DNA of 64,000 bases from assembly GCA_965261125.1 (NCBI GenBank), contig CBDHCS010000005.1:4902-68901 (forward strand), in the 5' to 3' direction. The notes under the pieces were generated by a model. That model did not search any database, had not been told where the DNA came from, and saw nothing but the letters and a program-made list of their open reading frames with translations. A program made the position numbers and the translations under genes. Position 1 is the first letter of the stretch. The number at the start of each line of letters is the position of its first letter. This stretch comes from Candidatus Poribacteria bacterium. GTDB lineage: Bacteria; Poribacteria; WGA-4E; WGA-3G. Shown here one piece after another: positions 3,219-64,000 of this stretch.

Positions 3219-3351
3219 CAGGACTTACGCATTCCCCCCGCTTGCGGGGGGATAAAGGGGGGTAAAACCTTGAAAAGGACAAAAAATCAGGGTTAATATC
3301 CGTGAAAGGACAAAATTCTAAACAGGGATACTTGAATTTGCGTAAGTCCTG
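3219..3351. repeat. MITE-like element, family A copy 1. Terminal inverted repeats CAGGACTTACGCA ... TGCGTAAGTCCTG, with internal core CGCTTGCGGGGGGATAAAGGGGGG
   Basis: Perfect 13-bp TIRs. The same element recurs at 7677, 17150, 20231 and 28289. Confidence 0.8.
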
Positions 3352-3761: not shown

Positions 3762-6068
3762 CTAACGAATCTGCCATAGCAGGATTGTGCCGTCGTAGCT
3801 GCCGCTGACAATAGTGTTTCCATCTGGAGAAAGAGCCACAGTGTGAACACCTTCCGTATGTCCTGTGAGTGTATTTTTGTGTTCTCCAGTATGTGCGTTC
3901 CACAATCGCACCGTCTTATCATGGCTGCCAGTAGCGATCGTCTTTCCATCCGGAAAAAATACTATGGAGAAAACTACTTCTGTATGCCCACTGAGTGTCG
4001 CTATATGTTTACCTGTGCTTGCGTCCCATAACTGCACTGGAGGATTGTCGCCGGTTTCTGTAGGGTCCAGGGTTGTAAGTTCGCCCGTATTTGCGCCCCT
4101 CAAGTGCTGTGGGGCGTTCTCGCCGTAAATTCCGGTAGCGAGAGTGTTTCCATCTGGAGAAAACGCTACAGACTTGACAGCCCCCTTATGTCGTAATGTG
4201 TTTTTGTGTTCTCCAGTCCGTGCGTTCCACAATCGCACTGTCTTGTCAGCACTTGCACTGGCGATAGTTTCTCCATCCGGAGAAAATGCCACGGAATAGA
4301 TCGGACCTGTATGTCCTTTGAAAGTTGATATGTTTTTTTCTGTTTGCGTATCCCACAAACGTACCGTGTTATCGAGGCTTCCTGAAACGATCGTGTTTCC
4401 GTCTGGAGAAAATGCCACGGAATAGATCCCTTCTGTATGTCCTTTGAAAGTTGATATGTTTTTTCCTATTTGTGCGTCCCACAATTGCACTGTATTGTCA
4501 AACTTTCCACCAGTAACTATCATATTCCCATCCGGAGAAAACATTACGGAATCAACATCACCCGTGTTCCGTCCTATGAGTGTATTTTTGTTTTTTCCTG
4601 TTCGTGTGTCCCACAACTGCACTGTTCCATCATGATGACCACTAACAATGGTTTTACCGTCCGGAGATAACACTATGGAAGTGATCGACCACGTATGTCC
4701 TGGGAGGGTGTTTTTGCGTTTTCCTGTTTGTGCGTCCCACAAATGTACTGTATTGTCCCAACTCCCCGTAGCGATAGTTTTTCCGTCCGGTGAAAACACT
4801 ACAGAAGTAACAGCACCTTTATGTCCTGAGAATGTGCTTTTGTGCTTTCCTGTTTGTGCGTCCCACAACCGGGCTCTACTCCAATGCCCAGTAACGATCG
4901 TCCCTCCATCCGGTGAATACACTACGGAGCGGGCACTATCTGTGAGTCCTTTTAGTGTATTTAGTCTACTTTTGTATTCTCCACTGTTTGTGTCCCACAA
5001 ACGTACCGTGTTATCTTTACTTGTAGTAACGATCGTCCTTCCATCCGGAGAAAATGCGATAGCACGGACACTGTCTGTATGCCCAGTAAGTGTATTTTTG
5101 TTCTTTCCTGCCTGAGTATCCCACAACCGCACTGTTTTGTCCTCACTCCCAATCGCAAGAATGTTTCCATTCGGGGAAAATGCTAAAGAAACGACATTAG
5201 GAGGAAATGCTGCAGAAGTGGCATAATCTGGTGGACCTCCTGTGGATACAGCCAAATCTGTACCTCCTGTGAATATAATTTTGTGTTCTCCTGTCTGAGT
5301 ATCCCACAACCGCACTGTGTTATCTCCACTACTCAGGGTAGCGATAGTAGCACTATTAGGGGAAAATGCTATAGAAGTAACAGACGATGTATGTCCTTCG
5401 AGTGTAGCTAAGTTTGTCCCTGTCCGTGTATCCCATAGCCGGACAGTTTTGTCATAACTTGCTGTAACAATCGTTCCTCCATCCGAAGAGAATGCGATGG
5501 CACAGACACTGTCCGTATGTCCAGTAAACAAGTCAATTTCTTTTTCTTTACCGGGACGCGCGTCATAAATCCAAATTCCGATGGAACTTGCAACGGCAAG
5601 CCGAGTACCATCCGGCGAGAAAGCGACATTTCCTGTTATATCACCTTTACCGAGGCGCGCTTTTGCACCTTCGGGCAGCGCCCATTGTGTATAGTCTACT
5701 GAGTCGGATAAACTCTGATTTGATTCCTGTCCCGTGCCATTACCTCTACCGGGAGTATCAGAATTATTTCCAACTATATTTCGAATATCCGGTTTTGCAT
5801 CAATCTCCTGGACTATAGGTGCATCAATAAGTTCTACTGCCATCTCAGACTGCATGTCCAAACTATAAGGTTGCTGGAAGCGCGCTAAATTCTTACTGCC
5901 CATGCCAAGTATGAACACAATCAAAATGGCACCAGATGCAGCCAACACCCACGGCATAAAAGGATTGCTTCCAGAAGGTGCAACAGGATTAAGATGTGCA
6001 ACTTCTCTCATTATGTTTTCAGTTAAGTTTGCGGATATTTGGAAATTGCTGAGTGCCTCTCTAATCAT
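3762..6068 (-). CDS. Membrane-anchored anti-sigma factor with a large periplasmic WD40 beta-propeller domain (about 14 WD repeats)
   Basis: 768 aa. The N-terminal cytoplasmic segment is followed by a TM helix (WVLAASGAILIVFILGM) and then repeated FSPDG...WD units. It lies 14 bp downstream of an ECF sigma gene, with an AAGGAGG RBS. Confidence 0.75.
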   Translation of the reverse strand: MIREALSNFQISANLTENIMREVAHLNPVAPSGSNPFMPWVLAASGAILIVFILGMGSKNLARFQQPYSLDMQSEMAVELIDAPIVQEIDAKPDIRNIVGNNSDTPGRGNGTGQESNQSLSDSVDYTQWALPEGAKARLGKGDITGNVAFSPDGTRLAVASSIGIWIYDARPGKEKEIDLFTGHTDSVCAIAFSSDGGTIVTASYDKTVRLWDTRTGTNLATLEGHTSSVTSIAFSPNSATIATLSSGDNTVRLWDTQTGEHKIIFTGGTDLAVSTGGPPDYATSAAFPPNVVSLAFSPNGNILAIGSEDKTVRLWDTQAGKNKNTLTGHTDSVRAIAFSPDGRTIVTTSKDNTVRLWDTNSGEYKSRLNTLKGLTDSARSVVYSPDGGTIVTGHWSRARLWDAQTGKHKSTFSGHKGAVTSVVFSPDGKTIATGSWDNTVHLWDAQTGKRKNTLPGHTWSITSIVLSPDGKTIVSGHHDGTVQLWDTRTGKNKNTLIGRNTGDVDSVMFSPDGNMIVTGGKFDNTVQLWDAQIGKNISTFKGHTEGIYSVAFSPDGNTIVSGSLDNTVRLWDTQTEKNISTFKGHTGPIYSVAFSPDGETIASASADKTVRLWNARTGEHKNTLRHKGAVKSVAFSPDGNTLATGIYGENAPQHLRGANTGELTTLDPTETGDNPPVQLWDASTGKHIATLSGHTEVVFSIVFFPDGKTIATGSHDKTVRLWNAHTGEHKNTLTGHTEGVHTVALSPDGNTIVSGSYDGTILLWQIR

Positions 6069-6082
6069 CGGTTCCTCCTTCT

Positions 6083-6628
6083 TTAGTCTTGCCTTGCACG
6101 GCTGAGCCTACTCTTAATCGCACTTGACGATACACCTAAAAATCTGCTAATCTCTTCACACGTCATGTTGCCGAAGTAGTGTAGGACCATTACCGTCCGC
6201 TCACTCTCTTTTAGTTTAGAGAGCAACTTTTTGACGACTTCGCGTTGTTCATCTACCGTAACTTTTGCTTGTTCTGTAGCGACATATTGGGAATATGTCG
6301 GTTCTTCTATTATCTCAGTATCTATGTCTTCAAGCGATTCTGTCTCCAGGTGTTTTTTACGGAGCCATGCAAGGCATTGGCGCGTTGCAATTACGTATAG
6401 CCATCCAGAAAACTGATTCGGGTTTTTCAAGGTTGCCAATTTTTGATAGACCTTGAGAAAAGTATCTTGCGTAATTTCTTCAGCGATGTGAAAATCGCCT
6501 ATTTTCCGCCAAGCGAGTGCATGCACCTGTTTTTGGTATTTTTCCACCAAACTGGCAAAGGCAGTATCATCACCTGCAAGGATACTATATATCAGTTCAG
6601 CATCGTTATTTTTCATCAGATACCTCAA
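6083..6628 (-). CDS. ECF-type RNA polymerase sigma factor (sigma-70 family, regions 2 and 4)
   Basis: 181 aa. Region-2-like (DDTAFASLVEKYQKQVHALAWRKIGD) and region-4 HTH (MTCEEISRFLGVSSSAIKSRLSRAR). Confidence 0.85.
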   Translation of the reverse strand: MRYLMKNNDAELIYSILAGDDTAFASLVEKYQKQVHALAWRKIGDFHIAEEITQDTFLKVYQKLATLKNPNQFSGWLYVIATRQCLAWLRKKHLETESLEDIDTEIIEEPTYSQYVATEQAKVTVDEQREVVKKLLSKLKESERTVMVLHYFGNMTCEEISRFLGVSSSAIKSRLSRARQD

Positions 6629-6875
6629 AAAAGTGATAAATTAATGTCCTCTATATATAGTGACGCGGGGAGAGGGCAAAACGGTCGCATAATTCTGAAA
6701 AAAACTGTGGTTCAAGCTGTTTTTTCATGGAATAGATAGATTTCACAGGGGAATTTATTTCACAAACTGGAAAATTTGAAAAGATGTTGAGCTGCTGATT
6801 ATCTCTATGGGGAGGTGTGGTTTCAGCGTGGGGAGACCTATTCAGAAGCAACTTTTTGTTTGATGTGGCACGCAA

Positions 6876-7076
6876 TTAACGTACCTTCCATAGCAGAATT
6901 GTACCATCATCACTACCGCTGGCAATCATGTTTCCATCTGGTGAAAACGCAACGGAAGTGAGGCTAAACGGATCCGCAGAGTGGGTATTAGTGTGTTCTT
7001 TTGTGCGGGTATCCATAGGCGTCAATTTAAGAAAAGTAAGAACGATTTTTTGAAAAAAGTTGTTAAATGAAAACAC
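6876..7076 (-). pseudogene. Orphan fragment of a WD40 gene (last blade only)
   Basis: VAFSPDGNMIASGSDDGTILLWKVR matches the C-terminus of the 3762..6068 protein (VALSPDGNTIVSGSYDGTILLWQIR). There is no upstream propeller. Confidence 0.4.
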
Positions 7077-7676: not shown

Positions 7677-7795
7677 CCGGACTTACGCATTCCCCCCGCT
7701 TGCGGGGTTAGGGGGGTAAAATAGGCAGAAATTGGAGTTTTTAACCCTCTAAAACCCTTATCAGGGGAACTTTTAAACACATTACGTAAGTCCTG
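7677..7795. repeat. MITE-like element, family A copy 2 (shorter variant)
   Basis: TIRs CCGGACTTACGCA / TACGTAAGTCCTG, with the CGCTTGCGGGG core. Confidence 0.7.
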
Positions 7796-11391: not shown

Positions 11392-11859
11392 CTCTCGTTT
11401 TAATAAACTTAAACAAGTTCACGCACCTCCAATTTATCAGATAACCGGGCAAAACGTCAACATAGAGTTGGATGTGTAAAGTTTTGGTTATATAATCTAA
11501 GTTGCCACATAGTAGCACAATTTGTTAGATTGTGTCTGTAAGGGCACAAACTAACAGATTGTGGGACAACTACTGTTATCCGCTATATTTCCGAAACAAG
11601 TTTATGAAAATGACCAATAACCTGAAAGTTCGCTGTATTAGGATAGGATACCATTTTTTATTATTCCCCCGCAACATCTCTGAACATCAGTGTTTCTACA
11701 AAAACTTTACACACTCCCTCTCAGGGTTATTTATAGTAAAGCCCATAATTATTTGGACACTTTTGTCCTTGTCCGCTCTCCCCCCGCTTGCGGGGGGTTG
11801 GGGGGCGGGATAAAGGAATATTTTCGTGTGTCCACTTAATTGTCGATTCTACTATAATG

Positions 11860-12250
11860 GGACACTTCTGTATCGCACCCTGTATGAAGATTAATTTATT
11901 AATTCGGTAATTTTCTATCCGTACGAGGCAAGTGTACTCCCCCGCTGGCGAGGCGGGGAATGCCTAAAGACGAATGCGCCTATGGCATTCGCCATGATTC
12001 ATACCCGGGGAATGCCAAAAGGCATTCATACCGTTGATTTCTTGATTTCTTCCTAACCTCGCCCAATTACCGAAATATTTTCTTAATCTTCATTTAGGTT
12101 GCGGACTCAGATGCACAACCTAAATGAAGATTAAGTTTTTAATTGGGTAATTATAATTTACTCCAAACCCCGGTAGGTGCGGTTTCCTAACCAATATATC
12201 TCCACGAATTACCTAATTTATTTTTTTATCTTCATATAGGTTGTGCTACA
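11860..12250. repeat. Composite family-D MITE (about 250 bp, long TIRs of the form TATGAAGATTAAtttattAATTCGGTAATT ... AATTACCGAAATATTttCTTAATCTTCATtTAGGTTG) plus extra solo TIR copies
   Basis: Internal GGAATGCC..GGCATTCC palindromes. The same architecture recurs at 24444, 37389, 43018 and 49570. Confidence 0.7.
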
Positions 12251-13023: not shown

Positions 13024-13166
13024 CTTACTGGTTTACTCGCTAAACATTTATTATATACAAACTTACGTAATAGGTTCAAAAGCCTTCTCCCCTCGCTTGC
13101 GGGGGGATAAAGGGGGGTGTATTTACGGAATTCGAAACACAAAAACTTACCGAGTGAACCACTTAC
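13024..13166. repeat. MITE-like element, family B copy 1 (TIRs TAAGTGGTTnACTCG / CGAGTnAACCACTTA; shares the GCGGGGGGATAAAGGGGGG core with family A)
   Basis: Also present at 22588, 26218 and 26421. Confidence 0.7.
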
Positions 13167-20230: not shown

Positions 20231-20354
20231 CAGGACGGACGCATTCCCCTCGCTTGCTATTCTTAGCCCCTCGCTTGCGGGGGGTTGGGGGGTCGGGATA
20301 AAGGAGGGTGTATTAGAGTATTCAAAACACAAAAACGGACCGAGTAAACCACTA
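20231..20354. repeat. Chimeric A/B-family element (A-type 5' TIR CAGGACGGACGCA, B-type 3' end CGAGTAAACCACTA) that abuts the thrC stop codon
   Basis: The last 3 nt of the element (cta) form the thrC TAG stop on the minus strand. Confidence 0.65.
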
Positions 20355-21674: not shown

Positions 21675-22300
21675 TCTATATCTTCCTGAATAGCACCGAG
21701 ATGTTCCGGACTGTTTGATGTGGACAAGAGTTGTTCAATCTCTTCAAGAGATGGTAACTCAGACGGATTTTTTAACCCGAATTGCTGAAGAAAAGTATCG
21801 GTAGTAGAAAAAAGCAGTGAACGTCCTGCCCCCTCTTTTCTACCCGACACGCAAACAAGGTCTTTCTCTACAAGCGCATTGATAACACTATCACTGTTTA
21901 CACCGCGAATCGCTGATACATCACTGCGTGTAACAGGCTGTTTGTATGCAACAATCGCAAGCGTTTCTAAAGCAGAAGGGGACAACGTTACACGCACCTG
22001 CTGGATATAAAACTTTCGAATCCATTCCGAAAATTCTGGACGGGTACAAATTTGATAACCGTTCGCGATTTCAACCAGATGAAAACTGCGGTGCATCTGT
22101 TCATACTCATCACGAAGTTCGGAGAGCACTTTCCGAACTTCTCGAGCGTTTATCCCCGGCATTGCGTGCTGAAACTGTTTCACCGAAATCGGTTCGCTTG
22201 CAGCAAACAGAATCGCTTCTAATATCGATTTTATATTCTCTTCTGGTGCCACATCTGAATTGTTCACCAGCTGTTCAGGCGCAACATTTTCCAAATCCAT
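21671..22300 (-). CDS. scpB: Segregation and condensation protein B
   Basis: LEAILFAASEPISVKQ N-terminal winged-helix signature. 4-bp overlap with thrC. Confidence 0.85.
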   Translation of the reverse strand: MDLENVAPEQLVNNSDVAPEENIKSILEAILFAASEPISVKQFQHAMPGINAREVRKVLSELRDEYEQMHRSFHLVEIANGYQICTRPEFSEWIRKFYIQQVRVTLSPSALETLAIVAYKQPVTRSDVSAIRGVNSDSVINALVEKDLVCVSGRKEGAGRSLLFSTTDTFLQQFGLKNPSELPSLEEIEQLLSTSNSPEHLGAIQEDIE

Positions 22301-22394
22301 TTTCCGATAATTCCTATACTTTCTATAGACATTATAATGATTTAATTTGAATTATAGTAAAATCTAAAAATACGTGAGCACTTCGAATGACAAC

Positions 22395-22545
22395 CTACCT
22401 TTACACCCACTGCTGGCGAGGCGGGGAATCATGGCGAATACCATACGCGTATTCGCCAAATGGCATTCATACCCGGGGAATGACTAAATGTCATTCATAC
22501 CGTTGATTTCTTGATTTCTTCCTAACCTCGCCAATGTCCAGATAA
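22395..22545. repeat. Partial family-D element (core without TIRs)
   Basis: CTGGCGAGGCGGGGAATCATGGCGAATACC...CGTTGATTTCTTGATTTCTTCCTAACCTCGCC. Confidence 0.6.
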
Positions 22546-22587
22546 TTGTGGATTTTACTATAAGGTTTACCGATCGTCTTGGACCTC

Positions 22588-22755
22588 TTTAGTGGTTCAC
22601 TCGCTAAATATTTATTGTCCATAGAACTTACGGCATAGATCTAAAAGTCCCTTCCCCTTGCCATCGCATGCGCGTGTGGCATGCGAATTGGGGGGATAAA
22701 GGGGGGTGTATTTTCGGATTTCAAAACACAAATACTTACCGAATGAACCATTTAG
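22588..22755. repeat. MITE-like element, family B copy 2
   Basis: TIRs TTAGTGGTTCACTCG / CGAATGAACCATTTAG. Confidence 0.65.
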
Positions 22756-22826
22756 TCCCGTAGGGACGATATGTTTATAGAAAACGTTTGTCCACGGGAT
22801 CTTTAGTCCCGTAGGGACGATATGTT
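22751..22826 (+). promoter_or_regulatory. Paired-hairpin motif, locus 1: two identical 25-nt units TTTAGTCCCGTAGGGACGATATGTT separated by a 26-nt spacer that begins TATAGAAAAC
   Basis: Read directly. A second locus at 53729..53798 has the same architecture and spacer start but different, still self-complementary, hairpin arms. Confidence 0.5.
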
Positions 22827-22899
22827 ACTATAGCACAAAACCCAAAATCTGTGAAAACAACAAAAACAATTAGTTAACTGGTACAAGTCGTTATACTTT

Positions 22900-23685
22900 C
22901 TATGCAGTAGATGTCGTCCTCTCTCCATCAACCGCTTTGACAATATATATACTTTCAAATAAACCTGTTTGTACAGTTACAATCTTCCCTATTCGGATAA
23001 GTTCTAAAACAGCGAGAAATGTAACGATAAGATCAAGTTTGCTTGAAGATAATAGGAATAGACTTTCGAAAAGCAATTGGTCTGCACTCTCTAATTGGTT
23101 CTCAATAAAGGCTATTTTATCCTCAACAGTAATCGTTTCTTCTTCAACTGTCTCATACTCCTCATCCGGTTCAACCTGAGTAATTTGGTCATTGATATTC
23201 TTAAAGGCAGTGAGCAGGTCAAACAGTGTAGCTTTAATTTCATAAGTCCGTGTCCCATCTAAATCCGCATGTGACTTTGAACTTCTGTTGTATATTGAGG
23301 TGCGCCGTTCAGCATAAATATCCAAAACTTGAGCTGCTTCTTTATAACGTTTGTACTCTAAAAGTTGTTGGACAAGTTGTTCTTGATTGCCTATCGGATG
23401 CTCAGTATCTGAGACAACTTGCGGCAAAATGCTTTGTGATTTTATATACAGAAGGGTTGCCGCCATCACCAAAAAATCGGATACTATATCCAAATCTAAC
23501 CGCTCCATCAGATTAACATATTCCAGATACCGATCCGTAATTTCGGCAATCTGAATATCGTAAATATCCATCTCCTCCCTCTGAATCAGATGGAGGAGTA
23601 GGTCAAGTGGTCCCTCAAAACCGTCTAATTTGACAGCGTAAATAGGATGTTTGCTTGAATGGGTGGGTGAAATATCTGCTAACAT
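22900..23685 (-). CDS. scpA: Segregation and condensation protein A
   Basis: 261 aa. LDGFEGPLDLLLHLI kleisin N-terminal motif. Confidence 0.85.
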   Translation of the reverse strand: MLADISPTHSSKHPIYAVKLDGFEGPLDLLLHLIQREEMDIYDIQIAEITDRYLEYVNLMERLDLDIVSDFLVMAATLLYIKSQSILPQVVSDTEHPIGNQEQLVQQLLEYKRYKEAAQVLDIYAERRTSIYNRSSKSHADLDGTRTYEIKATLFDLLTAFKNINDQITQVEPDEEYETVEEETITVEDKIAFIENQLESADQLLFESLFLLSSSKLDLIVTFLAVLELIRIGKIVTVQTGLFESIYIVKAVDGERTTSTA

Positions 23686-24443: not shown

Positions 24444-24690
24444 TATCACACCCTGTTAGGTTGTGTCCGATGTATTTTGTGTCACAACCTATATGAAGAT
24501 TAATTTATTAATTCGGTAATTTTCTATCCGTACGAGGTAAGTGTACTCCCCCGCTGGCGAGGCGGGGAATCATGGCGAATACCATACGCGTATTCGCCAT
24601 GATTCATACCGTTGATTTCTTCCGAACCTCGCCAAATTACCGAAATATTTACTTAATCTTCATTTAGGTTGTGTCCGATGCTTTAAGGAA
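24444..24690. repeat. Family-D composite MITE, copy 3. The cca stop codon lies inside its right TIR
   Basis: Left TIR CTATATGAAGATTAATTTATTAATTCGGTAATT, right TIR AATTACCGAAATATTTACTTAATCTTCATTTAGGTTG. TTAGGTTGTGTCCGATG is directly repeated at both outer ends (24455 and 24664). Confidence 0.7.
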
Positions 24691-26136: not shown

Positions 26137-26550
26137 TTAGTGGTTCACTCGCTAAACATTTATTATATAACCTAAGTTGCCACCTTCTTTGTAGCATAAT
26201 CTGTTAGATTGTGCATCTTAAGTGGTTTACTCGCTAAACATTTGTTACATATAGAGTTTACGGCATAGATCCAAAAATCCCCTCCCCTCGCTTGCGGGGG
26301 GATAAAGGGGGGTGTATTTAGGACGTTCAAAACACAAAAACGGACCGAGTCAACCACTTAGCGCAAGCATCGCTAAAGGATAACGTCTTTATGTAGCATA
26401 ATCTGTTAGATTGTGCATCTTAAGTGGTTGACTCGCTAAACATTTATTATGGACAAAACTTACGGCATAGATCCAAAAATCCCCTCCCCTCGCTTGCGGG
26501 GGATAAAGGGGGGTGTATTTAGGACGTTCAAAACACAAAAACTTATTAGC
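26137..26550. repeat. Cluster of family-B MITEs (one solo TIR at 26137, full copies at 26218..26346 and 26421..26548) interleaved with the GTAGCATAATCTGTTAGATTGTGC motif
   Basis: Two full copies in tandem within 400 bp; near-identical internal sequence. Confidence 0.7.
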
Positions 26551-28288: not shown

Positions 28289-28452
28289 TAGGACTTACGC
28301 ATTCCCCTCGCTTGCTATTCTTAGCCCCTCGCTTGCGGGGGGTTGGGGGGGGATAAAGGGGGGTAAAGCCTTGAAAATGACAAAAATCAGGGTTAAAATC
28401 CGTGAAGGGACAAAATTCTAAACAGGGATACTTGATTTTGTGTCCGTCCTGA
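28289..28452. repeat. MITE-like element, family A copy 5
   Basis: TIRs TAGGACTTACGCA / TGTGTCCGTCCTG. Carries the same 21-bp internal duplication as copy 3. Confidence 0.75.
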
Positions 28453-28457
28453 CGGTA

Positions 28458-33394: not shown

Positions 33395-35740
33395 TTATTC
33401 GGTATCTACATCTACATCCACATGCACATCGGGCGCATCACTTGGGCGGTTAACCAGATCAGCGAGATATTCTGCGATCTTGTCTGCGATTTGTCCGGCA
33501 TCCACATCGGCAAAGTTAAAGAGTTCCTTGAGCATCGGTGAAATTGCACCTGTGTCAAGCAACGTATTCGCAAACCGTCCCATGCTGCTTCGGTTGATAC
33601 CGCCTTTGCCATCATTATTGCCCATATCAAGAATTTTGATGCTGTCAATTTGCTCTACAGGACGCATCATTTGTTCAACAATGTCTGGAGCTTCTTCAAT
33701 TAATTCTAAGATTGCTTCTTGAACAAGGACACGTTGTTCAGCAACGTTGCGGGCTTCATATTCCGCCATTTCACCTTGTGCTTTGGCTCGTGCTTCCGAC
33801 AACACCGCATCAGCGAGACGTTCAATCGGCTGTGCTTGTGCTTCGGCACCGAGGATTGCAACGTCACGTTGCCATTCCGCACCTTTTATCTGTTCGGTGG
33901 CAGTAACATTGACTTCCGCCCCCATGCGTTCTGCTTCAGCCTCTAACTGTTCTTTCTCTGCAAGTGCGGTAAGCTGCTGTTTGTTGGCAACATCAATCTT
34001 CCTATCTTCGTCAGTAAGTGCGACGCGTAATTCTTGACCGATACGTGCCTGCTCCACCGTCAACATTTTATTAATTTCAGTAAGTTCCACCTGTTTGTTT
34101 TGGTCAATTTGTGCGGTTTCAACAACAAGGTTTTTCTCAATCTCGCGCTGTTGCACCTGCTGTTCTTGTGCGAACTTGGCTGTCTGCACAGTCAACTCAC
34201 GTTCAACATCTCGCAATTCAACACCCTCTTCCTGAACAATACGGGCTTTTTCTACGAAGAGTTGTTTCTCAAACTCACGTTCTTGTACCTGTTGTTCTTG
34301 GCTTATTTTATTGACTTCAACGGCTAACGTCTTGGCGATCTCAGTAAGTTCCACCTGTTTGTTTTGGTCAATTTGTGCGGTTTCAACAACAAGGTTTTTC
34401 TCAATCTCGCGCTGTTGCACCTGTTGTTCTTGGGCGAATTTCGCAGTTTGCACAATTAAGTCTCGCTCAACATCTCGCAATTGGACACCCTCTTCCTGAG
34501 CGATGCGCGCTTTTTCTACCATGAGCTGCTTCTCTATCTCGCGAACTTCAATTGTCTGTTCCTGTTCAATTTTCTCCATTTGCACAGTGAGATGTTGTGC
34601 AATTTCAGCAAGCTGAACAACTTTGGTTTGGTCAATTTGTGCGGTTTCAACGACGAGGTTTTTCTCAATCTCGCGCTGTTGTACTTGTTGTTCTTGGGCG
34701 AATGTCGCAGTTTGAACTTCTAATTCTAACTCAACTTCTCGTAATTGGACACCCTCTTCTTGAGAAATACGGGCGCGTTCAACCTCCAACTTCATTTCAT
34801 ATTCACGTTCTTGGACGCTCTGTTCCATCTCAAATTGGAACTTTATGGTTTCAGCTTCACGTTCTGCAGCATAAATAGCGATATTTTTCTGTTGATCAGA
34901 TTCTGCCCATGCTTGCTCTTGTTCTGCTTCAAGTATCTGAATACGTGCCTCAACATTAATTTGTTCGATGGCAACTTCTTTTGCTTTAATGGCAGCTTCT
35001 TTATCTCGCTCTTGTTCGGCAGTGATTTCAGTAATTTCTCGGATACCGACAGCGTCAAATCGGTTGTCGGGATTGAGCGTTTCAATGGGAGTTTGATCAA
35101 CCTGGATAATGGAAACGGTATCAAGTGTCAATCCATTATGGAGTCTCAGGTTTTCTCCGCAAGCATCCTGAACGTTCTCAGCGAATTCAAGACGTTTCTG
35201 TAGCAGGTTTTGAATTTCGCTTTCGGCAGCAACGCTTCTTAACGCACCATCCAACATCGGTTCAATTAATTCACGGATAGTTTCTGGTGTCATGGATTTA
35301 TCGCCGAGGGCTTGGGCAGCTTTTAAGATTTCATCATCATCAGGATTAACTTTAATATAGAAAACGACTTCAACGTCAGCGCGGTTGAAGTCGTTGGTAA
35401 TCAAGGAATCAGAGGCTTCGCGAACCACCTCAATTCGCATGGTATTCAGAGAGATCTCTTTGATTTCATGGATAATGGTGTTAACCCAGAGACCACCCGT
35501 AATACGAATCTTTTCCCTTGCACCACCTGTTCTGACCAATGCTACATCTGCTTTCGGTATCCTATAGCGGATAACAGAGCCTATAAAAGCAGCCAACCCC
35601 CCAATGAATACAACTGCTATAACACCCATCCAGCGCAGAACGTTAGTTTGGTTTTCAGCATCAATTAGTCGATCATAAGCGAAATACCCAATAACACTTA
35701 CAACAACAATTAAAAAAATAACAGCCAGAATAAGACGCAT
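33395..35740 (-). CDS. Flotillin / SPFH (band-7) family membrane protein with a very long coiled-coil region
   Basis: 781 aa. N-terminal TM plus SPFH domain, then a Q/E-rich coiled coil made of 88-aa repeats. Confidence 0.75.
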   Translation of the reverse strand: MRLILAVIFLIVVVSVIGYFAYDRLIDAENQTNVLRWMGVIAVVFIGGLAAFIGSVIRYRIPKADVALVRTGGAREKIRITGGLWVNTIIHEIKEISLNTMRIEVVREASDSLITNDFNRADVEVVFYIKVNPDDDEILKAAQALGDKSMTPETIRELIEPMLDGALRSVAAESEIQNLLQKRLEFAENVQDACGENLRLHNGLTLDTVSIIQVDQTPIETLNPDNRFDAVGIREITEITAEQERDKEAAIKAKEVAIEQINVEARIQILEAEQEQAWAESDQQKNIAIYAAEREAETIKFQFEMEQSVQEREYEMKLEVERARISQEEGVQLREVELELEVQTATFAQEQQVQQREIEKNLVVETAQIDQTKVVQLAEIAQHLTVQMEKIEQEQTIEVREIEKQLMVEKARIAQEEGVQLRDVERDLIVQTAKFAQEQQVQQREIEKNLVVETAQIDQNKQVELTEIAKTLAVEVNKISQEQQVQEREFEKQLFVEKARIVQEEGVELRDVERELTVQTAKFAQEQQVQQREIEKNLVVETAQIDQNKQVELTEINKMLTVEQARIGQELRVALTDEDRKIDVANKQQLTALAEKEQLEAEAERMGAEVNVTATEQIKGAEWQRDVAILGAEAQAQPIERLADAVLSEARAKAQGEMAEYEARNVAEQRVLVQEAILELIEEAPDIVEQMMRPVEQIDSIKILDMGNNDGKGGINRSSMGRFANTLLDTGAISPMLKELFNFADVDAGQIADKIAEYLADLVNRPSDAPDVHVDVDVDTE
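34077..34790. repeat. Intragenic tandem repeat, about 264 bp x about 2.7 copies, inside the flotillin gene
   Basis: Near-identical DNA copies start at 34077, 34341 and about 34600. They encode ETAQIDQ...QQREIEKNLVV units. Confidence 0.8.
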
Positions 35741-37196: not shown

Positions 37197-37388
37197 TTAT
37201 CTCCCCTTCGCTGAAGGTCATTATGTCTATTTTAGTTTGATAATTTATTATATCATTGAATTAAAGGGGTTGTCAAGGTAAAAGAAGGCAAATGTTACTT
37301 TTTGTCCTTGACACCTCAAAAAAAATATGATAGGTTTTTATAGTGAACTTGATAAACTTGTTTTGGAACATTACGGACAAGAGAAGTT

Positions 37389-37583
37389 GTAGCATAACCT
37401 GTTAGGTTGTGCATATTAGTCCGCAACCTAAATGAAGATTAAGAAAATATTTCGGTAATTTGGCGAGGTTAGGAAACCTCGCCAGCGGGGGAGTACACCT
37501 GCCTCGTACAGATAGAAAATTACCGAATTTATAAATTAATCTTCATACAGGTTGCGGTACAGAAGTGTCCCATTAATTATAGG
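37389..37583. repeat. Family-D composite MITE, copy 5 (reverse orientation)
   Basis: Same modules as 11860 and 24444. The element creates an artificial 5' extension of the downstream ORF (37552). Confidence 0.7.
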
Positions 37584-37661
37584 TTTTATTATAATTTCTA
37601 CTGAGCCATTCGTGACCTCATATTTCGACAAACCTGTTACTCAAAGATTGAGGGTAACACC

Positions 37662-41842: not shown

Positions 41843-43030
41843 TTAAAAATCCTGTCCGATTGAAAAAGTATAGACTGCAGTGCCTTGGACGATATGAATG
41901 CGTTCATCCTCAGACACACTCGGCTTGAATTGAGGGGTATAAGCGGCATTTAGTGTAATGTTTCCGAACCGTGCCCCAAATCCGAAGCAGAGACCTTCTG
42001 CTTTCCAATTTCGCTCCTCCATTTCAAACGTAGCATCTTCCAAAAGAAAAACCGAAGCGTAACGCTTTTCAGTGTCCCTAAGGTATCCGATTCTACCGCC
42101 GATACGGTCGTGAAACCAAACTTCAGCGCCAAGGTTCGCTCGGACACCATCACTAAAAGGAGGGTGTAAATCAAATCCGAGCCGTAAAGACACGTTTGAA
42201 ATTTCGCGTTGGTAAGTTATACCCGCAATAAGATTGCGGCGAATTTTATCTGGAATAACGGGATCAACAAACGACAATCCATTACTTAAATTACGGATGA
42301 CAATGCCTGCCTGAAGTGCATTTCCAAATTTCTGAATGAGTCCGATATCATAGACGTAACCACGTCCGAGATGCTCGGTTTCCGACGGATCGGTAACTTT
42401 AGACCGCAACCACTTTGCATCAAATCCAATGAAGGTGCCTCTGAAACAATTTACACCGTAACCGAGTCCAATAGCAAGGTTATTTTTTGGAAAACTATTG
42501 AGTGCTTTTCCTTCGTGGTCGACACGGCGAAAGGATCCTTCATGTGCTGTAGATAAAGCAAAACCTATAGTGCCGAATCTGCCTATTGGAAATGCGCAAT
42601 TCAATGTTTCAATACCGGCAGCACGCTGTTCATACTGGCTATAATCCTCGTAGTTTGCATTGAAATTCGGTTTAGAAAGGAGGGCAACGGTCCGTGGAAA
42701 ACGTGCCATGTGAATTACAAATTGATCTCCCTTAGCAACACCGATACCAGCGGGGTTGTTACCAAGCGCGTTTGCGCCAGTGGTTGCCCCGACAAAACTT
42801 CCACCCATTCCACGATGCTCAGCACCAAGCAACTGTTTGAGAAATCTGTCTGCTTCTGCAGTTGTATTTGCCACTGAGGCGGTACCATTTGAAACATAAA
42901 AACAGGAAACAAGGTAGAATAGGCAAATCAACAAAGATATTTTTAAATACTGTAGTGACTGAATCTGGCAGAGCGAGGATCGTAAATTTCTTTTCACTTT
43001 CTTACTTACTCCAAGGGCATATTGTAGCAT
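41843..43030 (-). CDS. Putative outer-membrane beta-barrel protein
   Basis: Signal-like segment, alternating amphipathic strands, C-terminal ...YTFSIGQDF ending in Phe. The ATG at 43030 lies inside a repeat; a GTG at 42997 is an alternative start. Confidence 0.45.
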   Translation of the reverse strand: MLQYALGVSKKVKRNLRSSLCQIQSLQYLKISLLICLFYLVSCFYVSNGTASVANTTAEADRFLKQLLGAEHRGMGGSFVGATTGANALGNNPAGIGVAKGDQFVIHMARFPRTVALLSKPNFNANYEDYSQYEQRAAGIETLNCAFPIGRFGTIGFALSTAHEGSFRRVDHEGKALNSFPKNNLAIGLGYGVNCFRGTFIGFDAKWLRSKVTDPSETEHLGRGYVYDIGLIQKFGNALQAGIVIRNLSNGLSFVDPVIPDKIRRNLIAGITYQREISNVSLRLGFDLHPPFSDGVRANLGAEVWFHDRIGGRIGYLRDTEKRYASVFLLEDATFEMEERNWKAEGLCFGFGARFGNITLNAAYTPQFKPSVSEDERIHIVQGTAVYTFSIGQDF

Positions 43031-43300
43031 AATCTGTTAGATTGTGCTTATGAGTGCGCAAACTGAATGAAGTTTAAGAAAATAAATCGGTAATTTGGCG
43101 AGGTTAGGAAGAAATCAAGAAATCAACGGTATGAATGACATTTAGTCATTCCCCGGGTATGAATACCATTTAGGTATTCCCCGCCTCGCCAGCGGGGAGT
43201 ACACCTACCTCGTACGGATAGAAAATTACCGAATTAATAAATCAATCTTCATACAGTTTGCGCTACGAAATTTCGTGAATTGTGTCTGTATATTAGGTTA
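43018..43300. repeat. Family-D composite MITE, copy 6, with outer GTAGCATAATCTGTTAGATTGTGC flank
   Basis: Same internal order as copy 7 (49570). Confidence 0.7.
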
Positions 43301-49569: not shown

Positions 49570-49826
49570 TTGTAGAGCAACCTGTTAGGTTGCGTCCGCT
49601 ACGGCACAACCTAAATGAAGTTTAAGAAAATAAATCCTAAATGAAGTTTAAGAAAATAAATCGGTAATTTGGCGAGGTTAGGAAGAAATCAACGGTATGA
49701 ATGCCATTAAGGCATTCCCCGCCTTGCCAGCGGGGAGTACACCTACCTCATACGGATAGAAAATTACCGAATTAATAAATTAATCTTCATACAGATTGTG
49801 CTACAGAGATGGCAACTTAGATTAGG
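49570..49826. repeat. Family-D composite MITE, copy 7, inserted between hslV and hslU. Contains an internal 27-bp tandem duplication CCTAAATGAAGTTTAAGAAAATAAATC
   Basis: Read directly; same module order as copy 6. Confidence 0.75.
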
Positions 49827-49894
49827 ATATTCAAAATTTCTGTTATTTTGGTTGCGGCACAGCGGATGTGCCACCACCTTTTTAGGAGGTTACA

Positions 49895-53690: not shown

Positions 53691-53728
53691 AAAATCCTCC
53701 TTTATATATAACACCAAAAGTATTCAGT

Positions 53729-53798
53729 CGCTCCAGCGGAGCGATATGTTTATAGAAAAATGTTAGTCCTCTCTACCGCTCCAGCGGAGCGGTATGTG
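53729..53798 (+). promoter_or_regulatory. Paired-hairpin motif, locus 2: CGCTCCAGCGGAGCGATATGTT, then a 26-nt spacer TATAGAAAAATG..., then CGCTCCAGCGGAGCGGTATGTG
   Basis: Same architecture as 22751..22826 with compensatory arm changes (GTCCC/GGGAC to GCTCC/GGAGC). Lies 40 bp upstream of the nitroreductase start codon on the minus strand. Confidence 0.5.
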
Positions 53799-53939
53799 CG
53801 GAATCCACTTGCAGCCTCAAATGGATGTTTTTCCAAATTATGTTATCCTTGTTCAGGCAGCTACTTGCGTTACATTAGAGATTCTGGCACCAACTTACGT
53901 GTCCATTCACATACAACCTAACGGGTGTCTACTACCATG

Positions 53940-61056: not shown

Positions 61057-62151
61057 ATGAAAAACACGTTGTGTTTAATTTTGACAGCACTGTTGATAGC
61101 ATTCACATTTACATTTAACAGTCTTGCCCAAACCCCACAGGATGATCCACAACAGGGGGATCCACAACAAGGGGATCTCCCTGATGGCGCGGAAGTGCGG
61201 TCCGGGCCTGAGCAAGGTAGGATCAGAGATATAAAGTTTTCCCCCGATGGCACACGCCTTGCAGTGGCGAGAAGCCGCGGTATTTGGCTCTTGGATGTCC
61301 AGACAGGTGACGAACTTGTGCAATTCACAGGTTTTGCGGATTCTGCTGCTACTATTGCATTTAGCCCGGATGGCAATATGTTGGTCGGTAGTAGCATAAA
61401 GGACAATACCGTTCGTTTGTGGGATGTACACACAGGTAGGAACATCCGAGCATTCAAAGGACGCAGTAAGAAGAATTGGGTAGGGGACGTAGCGTTTAGT
61501 CCGGATGGCAAAACTATCGTAATTAGGCGTTGGAACAAAACCCTCTGTCTATTGGATCTGAACACAGGCAAAACCCTCCGAATATTCAAAAAGGATACAG
61601 AAAAGATATCACGTGTTGCGTTTAGCCCGGATGGTAGGACTATCGCAAGTAGCGGTGAGGATAAAACTGTGCGTCTGTGGGATGCACACACGGGCAAAAA
61701 CCTTCACACACTCACAGGGAATACGGAAAGGATATGGCACGTAGCATTTAGTCCGGATGGCAAAATGATAGCAAGTAAAAGTAATGATGATACTGTGCGT
61801 CTGTGGGATACGCACACCGGACAACCCCTACGCACAATATATATGTCTTCTCTTGGCTTCAACTTTGCGTTCAGTCCGGATAGCAAGATGATCGCATGTA
61901 TCGGTTTCGGTACTATCGATCTATGGGATGTGAACACGGGACAACACTTACGAAAACTCATAAAAACCTACAGACGACTAGCTTCTACACTGAATATCGG
62001 ACGCTTGATTGCGTTCAGTCCGGATGGCAGGATGATCGTAAGTGCTGGTCCATTTGAAGTCCATCTGTGGGATGCAAACACAGGACAACTCCTCCGAAAA
62101 CTCATAAGTCATCCCAAAGGCACTGATGTACGATCATTCCAAAGGAACTAA
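61057..62151 (+). CDS. Secreted WD40 beta-propeller protein (paralog 1)
   Basis: RBS AAAGGAG. Signal peptide MKNTLCLILTALLIAFTFTFNSLAQ, then about 7 FSPDG...WD blades. Confidence 0.75.
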   Translation: MKNTLCLILTALLIAFTFTFNSLAQTPQDDPQQGDPQQGDLPDGAEVRSGPEQGRIRDIKFSPDGTRLAVARSRGIWLLDVQTGDELVQFTGFADSAATIAFSPDGNMLVGSSIKDNTVRLWDVHTGRNIRAFKGRSKKNWVGDVAFSPDGKTIVIRRWNKTLCLLDLNTGKTLRIFKKDTEKISRVAFSPDGRTIASSGEDKTVRLWDAHTGKNLHTLTGNTERIWHVAFSPDGKMIASKSNDDTVRLWDTHTGQPLRTIYMSSLGFNFAFSPDSKMIACIGFGTIDLWDVNTGQHLRKLIKTYRRLASTLNIGRLIAFSPDGRMIVSAGPFEVHLWDANTGQLLRKLISHPKGTDVRSFQRN

Positions 62152-62154
62152 CCG

Positions 62155-63417
62155 ATGAAAAATAGATTGTTTTCAATTTTGACAGCACTTTTGATAATAG
62201 CATTCACATTTACATTTAATAGTCTCGCCCAAGATTCACCGCAAGAGGATATAGAGGATTTACTTGAATCAATACGAGAGAAAGCAAAGGATTTAAGTAA
62301 GGCCGAGAAAACGGGCGCGGTCAATAAACTTGTTTATTCTACCAACGATATAAGTTTTTCCCACGATGGCAAACGGCTCGCGTTGGCAGGGAACTACGGC
62401 ATTTTGATCTACGACATTCAGAGAAATCGCAAAAACGTTCAGGCAAGTTACAAACCTACCAAATTGAGAGAACATCAGAGGAGAGGGTGGCGGGTAGCGT
62501 TTAGTCCAGATGGCAAGCTAATCGCAAGTGCGAATGCTACAGGCACCCTTTACCTATGGGATGCGAAAACGGAAAAACTCCTTCGGACAATCGAAGGTGA
62601 GCCAGGATATTCACCTTTCTCGTGTATGGCATTTAGTCAGGATGGCAGGATACTCGTTACCGGAGGGAACAAGATTATCACAAGGGATCCTTGGATAAGC
62701 GAGGGCATAGTGCTTTTGTGGGATGCACAGACAGGAGAACACATCCGAACCCTAACAGGACATACGAGACATGTCGATAGTGTGGCATTTAGTCCGGACG
62801 GCATAACTATCGCTGCGGGTGACTCCGTCACTATCAGGGCAGATGGTAAAGACAGTGGAGATGCCACAGTGCGTTTATGGGATGCACGGACGGGAAAACT
62901 TCTTCGGACCTTAATGAGACATGGGGGTGAGATCAAATGCTTGGCGTTTAGTCCGGATGGAAAACTGCTCGCAAGTGGTGGGCCGTTCGACCCTGTTCGT
63001 TTATGGGATGTAAACACCGGACAACACATCAGAACACTCGCAAGTGATAGGACAAGAACTCCGAAGGATCTGGATCAAGGGAGGCCGTCGTTTGATTCGG
63101 TAGATAGCATTGCATTTAGCCCAGATGGTAGCACACTTGCAAGTTCCAGTATACTGCGGGCCCGCCTATGGGATGTAAAACGGGGACGACTCCTCCTAAA
63201 ATTCAGAGACCAAAATTCAGGCAATGGTCCTAGTGTAGTGGCGTTTAGTCCAAATGGAAAGACTATCGCAATCAGTAGAAGTTATGAACTTGAGCAAATA
63301 GTTCCCAAAAGCAATGGCGTTAAAATTACGAAAGAAATAGAACTGTGGGATGCGGAAACGGGAAAACATCTCCATAGGATCAAGTTAGAAAGGTACAGAT
63401 TCCAAATTTACCGATGA
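62155..63417 (+). CDS. Secreted WD40 beta-propeller protein (paralog 2)
   Basis: Signal peptide MKNRLFSILTALLIIAFTFTFNSLAQ is nearly identical at DNA level to paralog 1. It starts 3 bp after the paralog-1 stop. Confidence 0.75.
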   Translation: MKNRLFSILTALLIIAFTFTFNSLAQDSPQEDIEDLLESIREKAKDLSKAEKTGAVNKLVYSTNDISFSHDGKRLALAGNYGILIYDIQRNRKNVQASYKPTKLREHQRRGWRVAFSPDGKLIASANATGTLYLWDAKTEKLLRTIEGEPGYSPFSCMAFSQDGRILVTGGNKIITRDPWISEGIVLLWDAQTGEHIRTLTGHTRHVDSVAFSPDGITIAAGDSVTIRADGKDSGDATVRLWDARTGKLLRTLMRHGGEIKCLAFSPDGKLLASGGPFDPVRLWDVNTGQHIRTLASDRTRTPKDLDQGRPSFDSVDSIAFSPDGSTLASSSILRARLWDVKRGRLLLKFRDQNSGNGPSVVAFSPNGKTIAISRSYELEQIVPKSNGVKITKEIELWDAETGKHLHRIKLERYRFQIYR

Positions 63418-63512: not shown

Positions 63513-64000
63513 GAGCATTAAATATGTTTACACTCCCCGGTAGATGCGGTTTCCTAACCAATGCAGAATACCGGACGCTTATGCTGCCGGAGTTTTCTCC
63601 AAAATTACAGAAATGATAAATTAATCTTTGGACAGTTTTCTCTACAGAAGTGTCCCGTTAATTGTAGGTTTTTCTATAGCGGATGTATTTAGGGCGTTCA
63701 AAATAGAAATCCACGATAATTAGCGTTACGTTCCAATACCGTCAGTTTATCACAAAATTAGCTACTGTCAATCTGTTTTACAAAAATAAACTATAGAAAA
63801 AATGTTGCATGCCTGCTGCAAACGTGGTATAATTACTATAATTTGATCACATGTCCAAAACGATATTACCAGAGATACACACCTCCAGATTTGCACAGCG
63901 GGTTCTCTCGTCATGAGAGTCTGATGCAAATATGAAGGGGGTGGACGTATAAACCCAATGCGGAGTCTTGCGGCTCCAGTAAACCCAGGAGGTTATTTTT

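Follow-up and report, generated by a model that had tools for sequence, protein, structure and literature searches.

What kind of genetic element keeps its layout and its flanks while the arms of its hairpins change? The question is raised by two intergenic motifs in a 64,000-nt stretch of a Candidatus Poribacteria genome (contig CBDHCS010000005.1; hereafter, the window), each composed of two hairpins on the same strand: locus 1 lies between scpA and scpB, and locus 2 upstream of a nitroreductase gene. The initial annotation had proposed a structured RNA or a binding site recognized by shape, possibly shared by redox or stress genes. Both motifs belong to a dispersed extragenic family of Candidatus Poribacteria that resembles repetitive extragenic palindromes (REPs), and they are not regulators of the neighboring genes. 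Most probably, the two loci are REP-like doublets representing the cognate site of a Y1 HUH transposase of TnpA-Y1 subclass 1.2; locus 2 would be the relic of a transposase cassette, and locus 1 would have been carried in by a miniature inverted-repeat transposable element (MITE).

Structure of the doublets and covariation of their stems

Locus 1 is an exact direct repeat of 25 nt, TTTAGTCCCGTAGGGACGATATGTT, whose two copies are separated by 26 nt starting with TATAGAAAAC and each contain the hairpin GTCCC-GTA-GGGAC. At locus 2 the core hairpin is GCTCC-AGC-GGAGC, extending to 7 and 9 bp, and the linker is again 26 nt long (TATAGAAAAATGTTAGTCCTCTCTAC, beginning with TATAGAAAAA). Hairpin starts are spaced 51 nt apart at the former locus and 48 nt apart at the latter (for positions, see Table 1). 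The two linkers are homologous (TATAGAAAA[A]YGTTWGTCC), and the 17-mer GATATGTTTATAGAAAA is exactly conserved at both loci and found at no other place in the window. With all filters disabled, a covariance model built for the doublet gives 84.6 bits (E 9e-21) for locus 1 and 75.5 bits (E 2e-18) for locus 2; these are the only copies in the window, followed by their own reverse strands and by matches with E of at least 0.1. Thus, both direct reading of the sequence and the model bear out the annotated layout. Folding of the doublets as DNA yields z-scores of -3.4 to -4.5 relative to shuffled controls, a comparison that had been suggested at the outset.

The general unit consists of A at position -1, a 5-bp stem, a loop of 3-4 nt, the second stem arm, G, two variable nucleotides, and the constant asymmetric tag ATGTYTATAG, which thus begins 3 nt past the 3' arm. 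The stem is G+C-rich and in most cases directly preceded by A and directly followed by G. The A at position -1 is the only conserved 5' base (91% and 83%), and the further 5' flank TCTTYA is conserved within Poribacteria only. In a seed of 57 doublets, pairing of the five core positions is practically without exception in both stems; pair 2 switches between U-A and C-G, pair 3 between C-G and U-A. Among 143 distinct model matches, 99.6% of stem cells are paired, and 108 cells are doubly changed, compared with 30 +/- 4 in shuffles (0/500); slid controls all collapse. With the tag ATGTNTATAG as the sole anchor, a perfect hairpin with 5 bp or more stands before it in a fixed register at 79% of 509 sites, compared with 2.6% of random positions. 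The tag-anchored sites comprise 55 different stem/loop combinations, and at least 25 distinct stem sequences are seen when environmental relatives are counted. Since the stems covary with flank and spacing retained, the element fits a site recognized by shape, as the initial annotation had suggested.

Each hairpin is at the same time a near-perfect 13-bp palindrome, and could serve in double-stranded form as a site for a host protein, such as a nucleoid protein, gyrase, or a dyad-reading repressor; the association with Y1 genes described below would then be incidental. REPs and bacterial interspersed mosaic elements (BIMEs) of E. coli, which bind integration host factor, gyrase, and DNA polymerase I, provide a precedent, and there is an overlap between locus 2 and the probable nitroreductase promoter region. 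However, pairing is retained while the stem sequence varies freely, a pattern expected for a folded single strand and not for a sequence-specific duplex. The asymmetry of the constant tag and an association with Y1 genes far above chance also make a duplex site very unlikely. What reads the shape is likely to be a Y1 HUH transposase that works on single-stranded DNA, rather than an RNA-binding factor or a dyad-symmetric repressor.

Dispersal of the family and its association with Y1 genes

Scanning of one genome per species with the pattern GATATGTTTATAGAAAAN{1,2}GTT yielded at least 118 stretches of 8 kb that contain the exact 20-mer core. Among the matches listed, 115 are in approximately 25 metagenome-assembled genomes (MAGs) of Candidatus Poribacteria, with copies scattered along entire chromosomes, and the remaining three, from outside Poribacteria, have no hairpins and are due to chance. 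The covariance model detects 261 doublets in 833 kb of the scanned stretches. Perfect hairpins with a 5-bp stem and a 3-nt loop, counted in 911 kb, fall into four types: A (GTCCC-GTA-GGGAC, 274 copies), B (GTTCC-GTA-GGAAC, 86), C (GCTCC-AGC-GGAGC, 32), and D (GCCCC-AGC-GGGGC, 10). They form same-strand doublets (A+A+ 24, A+B+ 13, C+C+ 13), convergent quadruplets of the ++-- composition (for example, A+A+A-A-, 17 cases), and arrays of several plus-strand units followed by several minus-strand units, up to at least eight, with a period of about 49-55 nt and nearly identical linkers. Further copies, on whose existence and covariation the initial proposal had been made to depend, number in the hundreds, and they do covary.

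The repeat-spacer-repeat appearance, with units of about 25 and 26 nt, had also led to a comparison with a minimal orphan array, that is, a degenerate mini-array resembling clustered regularly interspaced short palindromic repeats (CRISPR). This reading is refuted because the "spacers" recur in conserved form from locus to locus and from genome to genome and hardly differ inside an array, the 26-nt segment being a part of the unit itself. Moreover, the period of about 49-55 nt is too short, the neighbors of loci 1 and 2 are housekeeping genes and not cas genes, and the arrays switch orientation (++--), which to our knowledge CRISPR arrays do not do. We give such an origin practically no credence.

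The family is extragenic: 2 of 175 clusters fall inside open frames of at least 150 codons, compared with 65% of random intervals. Unidirectional clusters have no preferred orientation relative to the flanking reading frames (++ 12, -- 12, convergent 7, divergent 5). These data bear on a cis-regulatory structured RNA (a leader, an attenuator, or a small RNA) controlling scpB and the nitroreductase gene. Both copies are located upstream of minus-strand genes and would be transcribed, their stems covary, their folding is better than that of shuffles, and they have sub-threshold matches to the Rfam family Acido-Lenti-1 (16.3 and 14.9 bits, with a gathering score of 37). On the other hand, the hundreds of copies occupy unrelated intergenic contexts, many of them are palindromic composites or tandem arrays, the transcripts of scpB and nitroreductase carry the element as its reverse complement, and the relative L022 has intact scpA and scpB genes without the copy. 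The lack of orientation bias, the extragenic dispersal, and the absence of any Rfam match to the repeat at the gathering score argue against a gene-specific regulatory RNA, and the suggested link of an RNA or operator with redox or stress functions is not supported; we consider such control highly improbable. Any effect on expression of scpB or nitroreductase via hairpins in the transcripts would be a by-product.

A search for the partner among reading frames bracketed by hairpin clusters revealed three frames of the Pfam family Y1_Tnp: L019:1083-1553 (E 7e-30), L088:3614-4090 (E 5e-27), and a frameshifted copy in L042. The arrangement is two forward hairpins, the gene, and two reverse hairpins (-> -> gene <- <-), with the tag side towards the gene in raw coordinates; bracketing is seen at L019, L088, L042, and L119-L125. 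Because the repeat brackets a Y1 gene in related genomes, it is assigned to the REP kind and not to regulators of adjacent genes. The homologues P0008 and P0003 have the same bracket with C-type hairpins. Two Poribacteria Y1 paralogues, 64.5% identical, are accompanied by different hairpins (A/B and C, respectively), and a 67%-identical homologue by arrays of yet another one, AGGTCC-GTAA-GGACCT, with the same tag.

Similar associations occur in environmental contigs. A protein search returns more than 5,000 homologues of the Y1 protein, and we considered an environmental set of 80 metagenomic homologues with 57-68% identity (one with 86%). The tag is present upstream in forward orientation in 25 and downstream in reverse orientation in 30 of these 80 loci, with a chance expectation of about 0.003 per flank. 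The environmental tags adjoin locus-specific hairpins, for example, AACGCC-GGA-GGCGTG, AACCAC-GTA-GTGGTG, and AGCGCC-AGC-GGCGCG. We found no paper on this association of hairpins with Y1 genes, nor any work on REPs or REP-associated tyrosine transposases (RAYTs) in Poribacteria; literature searches combining Poribacteria with RAYT or REP, and searches for the tag, gave false matches only ("Raytselis" in reference lists, PCR primers).

Among solved structures, those closest to the Y1 protein are ISDra2 TnpA (2xm3, the best match) and IS608 TnpA; the protein contains both the HUH and the Tyr motif. In an alignment of 12 homologues, the conserved motifs are [DN]H[IVL]H, WQ (CQ in one protein), and YI.NQE.HH, and most proteins have 157-159 aa including a C-terminal tail; the Poribacteria proteins have [DN]HIH, WQ, YI[QK]NQE.HH, and a tail of about 30 aa. 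The published description of TnpA-Y1 subclass 1.2 gives the HuH motif DH[IV]H, the W motif WQ, the Y motif Y---Q--HH, a length of about 148 aa, and a conserved tail of about 30 aa (PMC6006769). By its motifs, the putative partner fits this subclass, which Quentin et al. (2018) characterized as low-copy, non-IS-like, and lacking REPs (PMC6006769).

Another scenario is that the hairpins are ends of ordinary active insertion sequences (ISs) of the IS200/IS605 family, with gene-less doublets being deletion derivatives of the MITE kind known as palindrome-associated transposable elements (PATEs). The L019 and L088 proteins pass the NCBIfam IS200/IS605 model (transpos_IS200; 88 and 72 bits, cut-off 55) and resemble ISDra2 and IS608 TnpA, the same-strand doublet resembles a minimal left end plus right end, and on one contig a TnpB gene is adjacent to the Y1 gene. 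However, the hairpins that flank the gene are inverted and not direct, making single-strand excision of the gene impossible. The chromosomal neighbors of the gene are kept across assemblies, and likewise at the nitroreductase locus in at least three genomes, the clusters of Y1 proteins are mostly found on one to three contigs, and the Y---Q--HH motif together with the C-terminal tail fits the non-IS subclass 1.2 (PMC6006769). An example is provided by P0008: in the six places shown (24 contigs read), it lies in most cases between the same glycosyltransferase and deacetylase genes, and it has the same downstream gene in 6/6. Therefore, it behaves as a resident gene and not as a jumping IS, and an active IS200/IS605 element seems an unlikely source of the hairpins.

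The TnpB gene mentioned above (OrfB_IS605/Cas12f-like; L121 1-710, minus strand) is located directly upstream of the resident Y1 gene in one assembly variant; other contigs have a glycosyltransferase gene at this position.

Origin of the two loci and a proposed mechanism

Locus 2 is situated between the stop codon of a prepilin peptidase gene (53940) and the start codon of the nitroreductase gene (53690-53688), both on the minus strand. Its annotated position upstream of the nitroreductase start is correct; the ribosome-binding site, AGGAGG, lies at 53701-53696 and not at 53691. Orthologues of the nitroreductase with 93-96% identity are found in L042, L088, and L038, where the same intergenic space contains left C-type hairpins, a Y1 gene, and a right C-C- doublet followed by the nitroreductase gene. 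The doublet of locus 2 matches the right flank of the Y1 gene in all three relatives base for base and, together with about 35 nt beyond it, aligns with the interval that separates their Y1 stop codon from the nitroreductase start. On the other side, the left hairpin beside the leader remnant is degenerate, and a tblastn search of the entire window returns no Y1 coding sequence. Judged by these alignments, what survives at locus 2 is the right flank of a decayed Y1 cassette whose gene and left hairpins have been lost.

A deletion of 48 nt in the window has brought the doublet to within 38 nt of the nitroreductase start codon. Comparison of window positions 53691-53728 with L088 4198-4283 places the missing segment, kept by the three relatives, between the right doublet and the ribosome-binding site. 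As the window lacks it, the native promoter region of the nitroreductase gene may be altered. Inspection of the linker by eye and with a scanner for sigma-70 and sigma-54 promoters revealed no promoter-like site at locus 2, and one terminator-like call corresponds simply to the hairpin with the T-rich tag. In one relative (OX638351.1), about 85 nt are duplicated upstream of the frameshifted Y1 gene (L042 440-524 and from 1266 onward); they comprise the ribosome-binding site and the 5' coding end of the nitroreductase gene, and the cassette seems to sit inside a duplication of its own target region.

Locus 1 has a different history. The genes on both sides are on the minus strand, with the scpA stop at 22900 and the scpB start at 22300. 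The gap between them is 599 nt in the window and about 25 nt in L022, where ScpA and ScpB are 88.5% identical; L022 thus represents the empty site and confirms that locus 1 resides in inserted DNA. The insertion of 577 nt is as a whole flanked by the 12-nt repeats TATACTTTCTAT and also contains GGGGGGATAAAGGGGGG-type and other MITE pieces. The doublet and its right flank most probably belong to a MITE family, here called MITE-X, of 222-225 bp with inverted ends ACGAGTTGTGCT...AGCACAAGTCGT, a central A+A+ doublet, and 7-bp target duplications at no fewer than 10 loci elsewhere. The copy in the window has the right inverted repeat and the expected duplication, TATACTT, which is formed by the first 7 nt of the left TATACTTTCTAT copy; its left inverted repeat was not found, and a GGGGGGATAAAGGGGGG-type repeat stands in place of the left arm. 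As far as these sequence features tell, the carrier that brought locus 1 into the gap between the two genes was a MITE with terminal inverted repeats and 7-bp duplications. Loci with the right flank atctgtgaaaaca were considered as orthologous scpA-scpB junctions and rejected: tblastn detects scpA together with scpB only in L022, and this flank is a MITE arm. C-type doublets are also found within a second MITE with terminal inverted repeats (ACCCAAGTTGCTACCT...). Since both A-type and C-type doublets are carried inside MITEs, a part of the spread of the family is passive.

The single-strand mechanism of IS608 and ISDra2 TnpA and of E. coli TnpA-REP is established. By analogy, the Poribacteria Y1 enzyme would bind the folded hairpin on single-stranded DNA, reading its shape together with the constant tag, and this would explain the covariation of the stems. 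It would cut and rejoin the DNA next to the tag, spreading gene-less units and altering the number of units in arrays. The Y1 gene itself would stay at fixed chromosomal places between inverted hairpin brackets that immobilize it, in the manner of the REPtrons discussed below, and some copies also move passively inside ordinary MITEs with terminal inverted repeats. Homology of terminal units stops within GATATGT(TTAT), which is compatible with joining near ATGT, although this is speculation.

Several observations weigh against this mechanism and against the cognate-site assignment. The link between the enzyme and the site rests on homology and genomic association, and the window contains no Y1 gene. 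The units have no GT[AG]G foot, and the L019 and L088 proteins score 33 and 30 bits with the NCBIfam model for REP tyrosine transposases (NF047646), below its cut-off of 80. The published account of subclass 1.2 has no associated REPs (PMC6006769), and approximately 60% of the environmental homologues lack the tag within 700 nt. The insertion at locus 1 has a flanking repeat of 12 nt and not 7 nt at its left end, and no left inverted repeat. Finally, many Poribacteria copies are central in MITEs with terminal inverted repeats and target duplications, and because they ride inside these elements, much of the spread may owe nothing to the Y1 enzyme. As both the GTAG foot and a class-2 RAYT protein were tested for and both failed, we do not file the family as canonical REPs. 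On balance, we are mildly inclined to see in the hairpin with ATGTYTATAG the cognate DNA site that TnpA-Y1 subclass 1.2 has so far seemed to lack.

Table 1. Positions of the repeat units, their surroundings, and other repeats in the window
Feature	Position	Strand	Remark
Locus 1, unit 1	22751..22775	+	TTTA, A-type hairpin (22755-22767), GATATGTT (22768-22775)
Locus 1, linker	22776..22801	+	TATAGAAAACGTTTGTCCACGGGATC; initial bases finish the conserved 3' tag ATGTTTATAG(AAAA)
Locus 1, unit 2	22802..22826	+	Identical to unit 1; hairpin 22806-22818, GATATGTT 22819-22826
Right arm of MITE-X	22827..22891	+	MITE of 222-225 bp; terminal inverted repeat TTAACTGGTACAAGTCGT at 22874-22891
Inserted block of repeat DNA	22327..22891	.	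Between scpB start (22300) and scpA stop (22900); absent from relative L022
12-nt direct repeat, left copy	22315..22326	+	TATACTTTCTAT; flanks inserted block
12-nt direct repeat, right copy	22892..22903	+	TATACTTTCTAT; overlaps scpA stop codon
Locus 2, unit 1	53728..53750	+	C-type hairpin (TC)GCTCC-AGC-GGAGC(GA), core 53730-53742, and GATATGTT (53743-53750)
Locus 2, linker	53751..53774	+	Start TATAGAAAAATGTTAGTCC; conserved in orthologous doublets of L088, L042, and L038
Locus 2, unit 2	53775..53798	+	C-type hairpin ACCGCTCC-AGC-GGAGCGGT, core 53778-53790, overlapping GGTATGTG (53791-53798)
Trailer remnant	53799..53835	+	Homologous to the stretch from Y1 stop codon to right doublet in L088, L042, and L038
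Leader remnant	53870..53914	-	GTATGTGAATGGACACGTAAGTTGGTGCCAGAATCTCTAATGTAA; aligns with sequence after the left doublet upstream of Y1 in L088 and L042
G-rich palindrome family, first copies	3228-3267, 7686-7725, 11774-11813, 13083-13165
G-rich palindrome family, further copies	20261-20336, 22652-22754, 26258-26542, 28319-28453
MITE family TTAGGTTGTGC..	11854-12152, 24463-24521, 37387-37593, 43022-43299, 49570-49837, 63601-63678

Other repeats accompany the family. In L030, L069, L087, L094 (about 6630-6700), L016, L027, and others, it is precisely the hairpin loop that is interrupted (GTCCCG|insert|TAGGGAC) by a recurrent mini-element of approximately 34 nt (CCAAATGC..GCATTTGGCGTTGATTTGG or one of its variants); related pieces are present at 22417-22510 of the window, and about 20 of the 261 model matches are lengthened by loop insertions. 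The MITE family TTAGGTTGTGC..GCAACCTAAATGAAGATTAAG..TTCGGTAATTTGGCGAGGTTAGGAA is abundant in the window, and other Poribacteria have split hairpins attached directly to its ATGAAG end (GTCCCGT|ATGAAGTTTAAG in L031 and L112; CCAG|ATGAAG in L107). One copy of a G-rich palindrome family (CCCCCCGCTTGCGGGGGGATAAAGGGGGG ... AAAACACAAAAAC) is the left neighbor of locus 1. Elsewhere in the window, runs of a 126-nt (42-codon) repeat with motifs of the AFSPDG..WD type (3790-7000, minus strand, and 61350-63400, plus strand) probably encode large WD40-repeat proteins, which are typical of sponge symbionts. A 264-nt unit present in three tandem copies at 34053-34837 (81% and 70% identity) may be a repeated protein domain.

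For the annotation of the window, it follows that the two intergenic motifs are repeat elements, one of them marking a decayed transposase cassette, and should not be read as regulators of scpB or the nitroreductase gene. The folded hairpin with ATGTYTATAG offers a testable DNA substrate for a large uncharacterized branch of HUH/Y1 enzymes; subclass 1.2 is a widespread group of domesticated HUH enzymes. If the cognate-site assignment is true, it defines a new class of REPs with a 3' tag of 10 nt, a stem usually flanked by A and G, and an organization in arrays and same-strand doublets; this class would span Poribacteria and many soil, sediment, and freshwater bacteria. The Poribacteria genomes contain a layered system of nested small mobile elements, which matters for MAG assembly, strain typing, and the genome plasticity of sponge symbionts.

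Comparison with known systems

The family shares several features with the REPtron, the combination of REPs or BIMEs with TnpA-REP (RAYT) in E. coli, Pseudomonas, and Stenotrophomonas. In both cases, short extragenic palindromes are present in high copy number, a genome contains more than one hairpin subtype (A, B, C, and D here; Y, Z1, and Z2 in E. coli), the Y1 lineage is tracked by the hairpin type, and a low-copy Y1 HUH gene occupies a fixed locus bracketed by repeats in inverted orientation. Small mobile elements insert in the hairpin loops of Poribacteria, as IS elements do in REPs. Unlike REPs, the units have no GT[AG]G 5' foot and carry instead the tag ATGTYTATAG 3 nt past the 3' arm; their stems are much shorter, 5-7 bp, and as a basic module they form doublets or arrays on one strand, joined by a conserved linker, instead of occurring only as inverted pairs. 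The protein also differs from RAYTs, belonging to class 1 (Y---Q--HH; YIQNQEKHH) and not to class 2 (Y---NP), and it fails the REP_Tyr_transpos cut-off. REP doublets forming hairpins (REPINs), reportedly described by Bertels and Rainey in 2011, are inverted REP doublets. The convergent ++-- composites are similar to them in being long imperfect palindromes of REP-like units, whereas both loci of the window are direct doublets for which no single long hairpin is possible, and the arrays reach at least eight units.

The size of the enzyme (about 155 aa), its IS200-like core, and the putative role of small hairpins as recognition elements are reminiscent of IS200/IS605 elements and PATE-type MITEs, and two same-strand hairpins recall the left-end and right-end hairpins of these ISs. 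The differences are that the hairpins are inverted around the Y1 gene, the gene appears not to be multi-copy, and there is usually no tnpB partner.

A further parallel is provided by the Rfam family Acido-Lenti-1 (RF01687), whose 3' half, CUA-auuUAUgcC-GUgCC-UUC-GGcAC-U, is laid out as the reverse complement of the unit, CTATAAACATATC-GTCCC-TAC-GGGAC-T. Its sub-threshold matches are on the minus strand of the window at 22755-22776 and 22805-22853 (14.9 and 16.3 bits, respectively), and a 26.9-bit match, also below the gathering score of 37, is found in L193 (1494-1554), about 440 nt downstream of a Y1 homologue. Unlike the unit, RF01687 has a 5' hairpin, without counterpart in the window. As a lead only, this "small RNA" family may be a related DNA repeat, and it might be explained as such if the cognate-site assignment is true.

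Subclass 1.2 is common in cyanobacteria. The small dispersed repeats (SDRs) of cyanobacteria, said to have been described by Elhai et al. in 2008, are reportedly tiny units nested in MITE-like frames; by this description, they may resemble the Poribacteria family in having small units within MITE-like frames.

The Poribacteria enzymes themselves match TnpA-Y1 subclass 1.2 (PMC6006769) in their HuH, WQ, and Y motifs, length of 157-159 aa, tail of about 30 aa, and apparently low copy number. In contrast to the published subclass, the genes from Poribacteria and many of those from soil, sediment, and freshwater are flanked by hairpin repeats, seen at about one third of the environmental loci.

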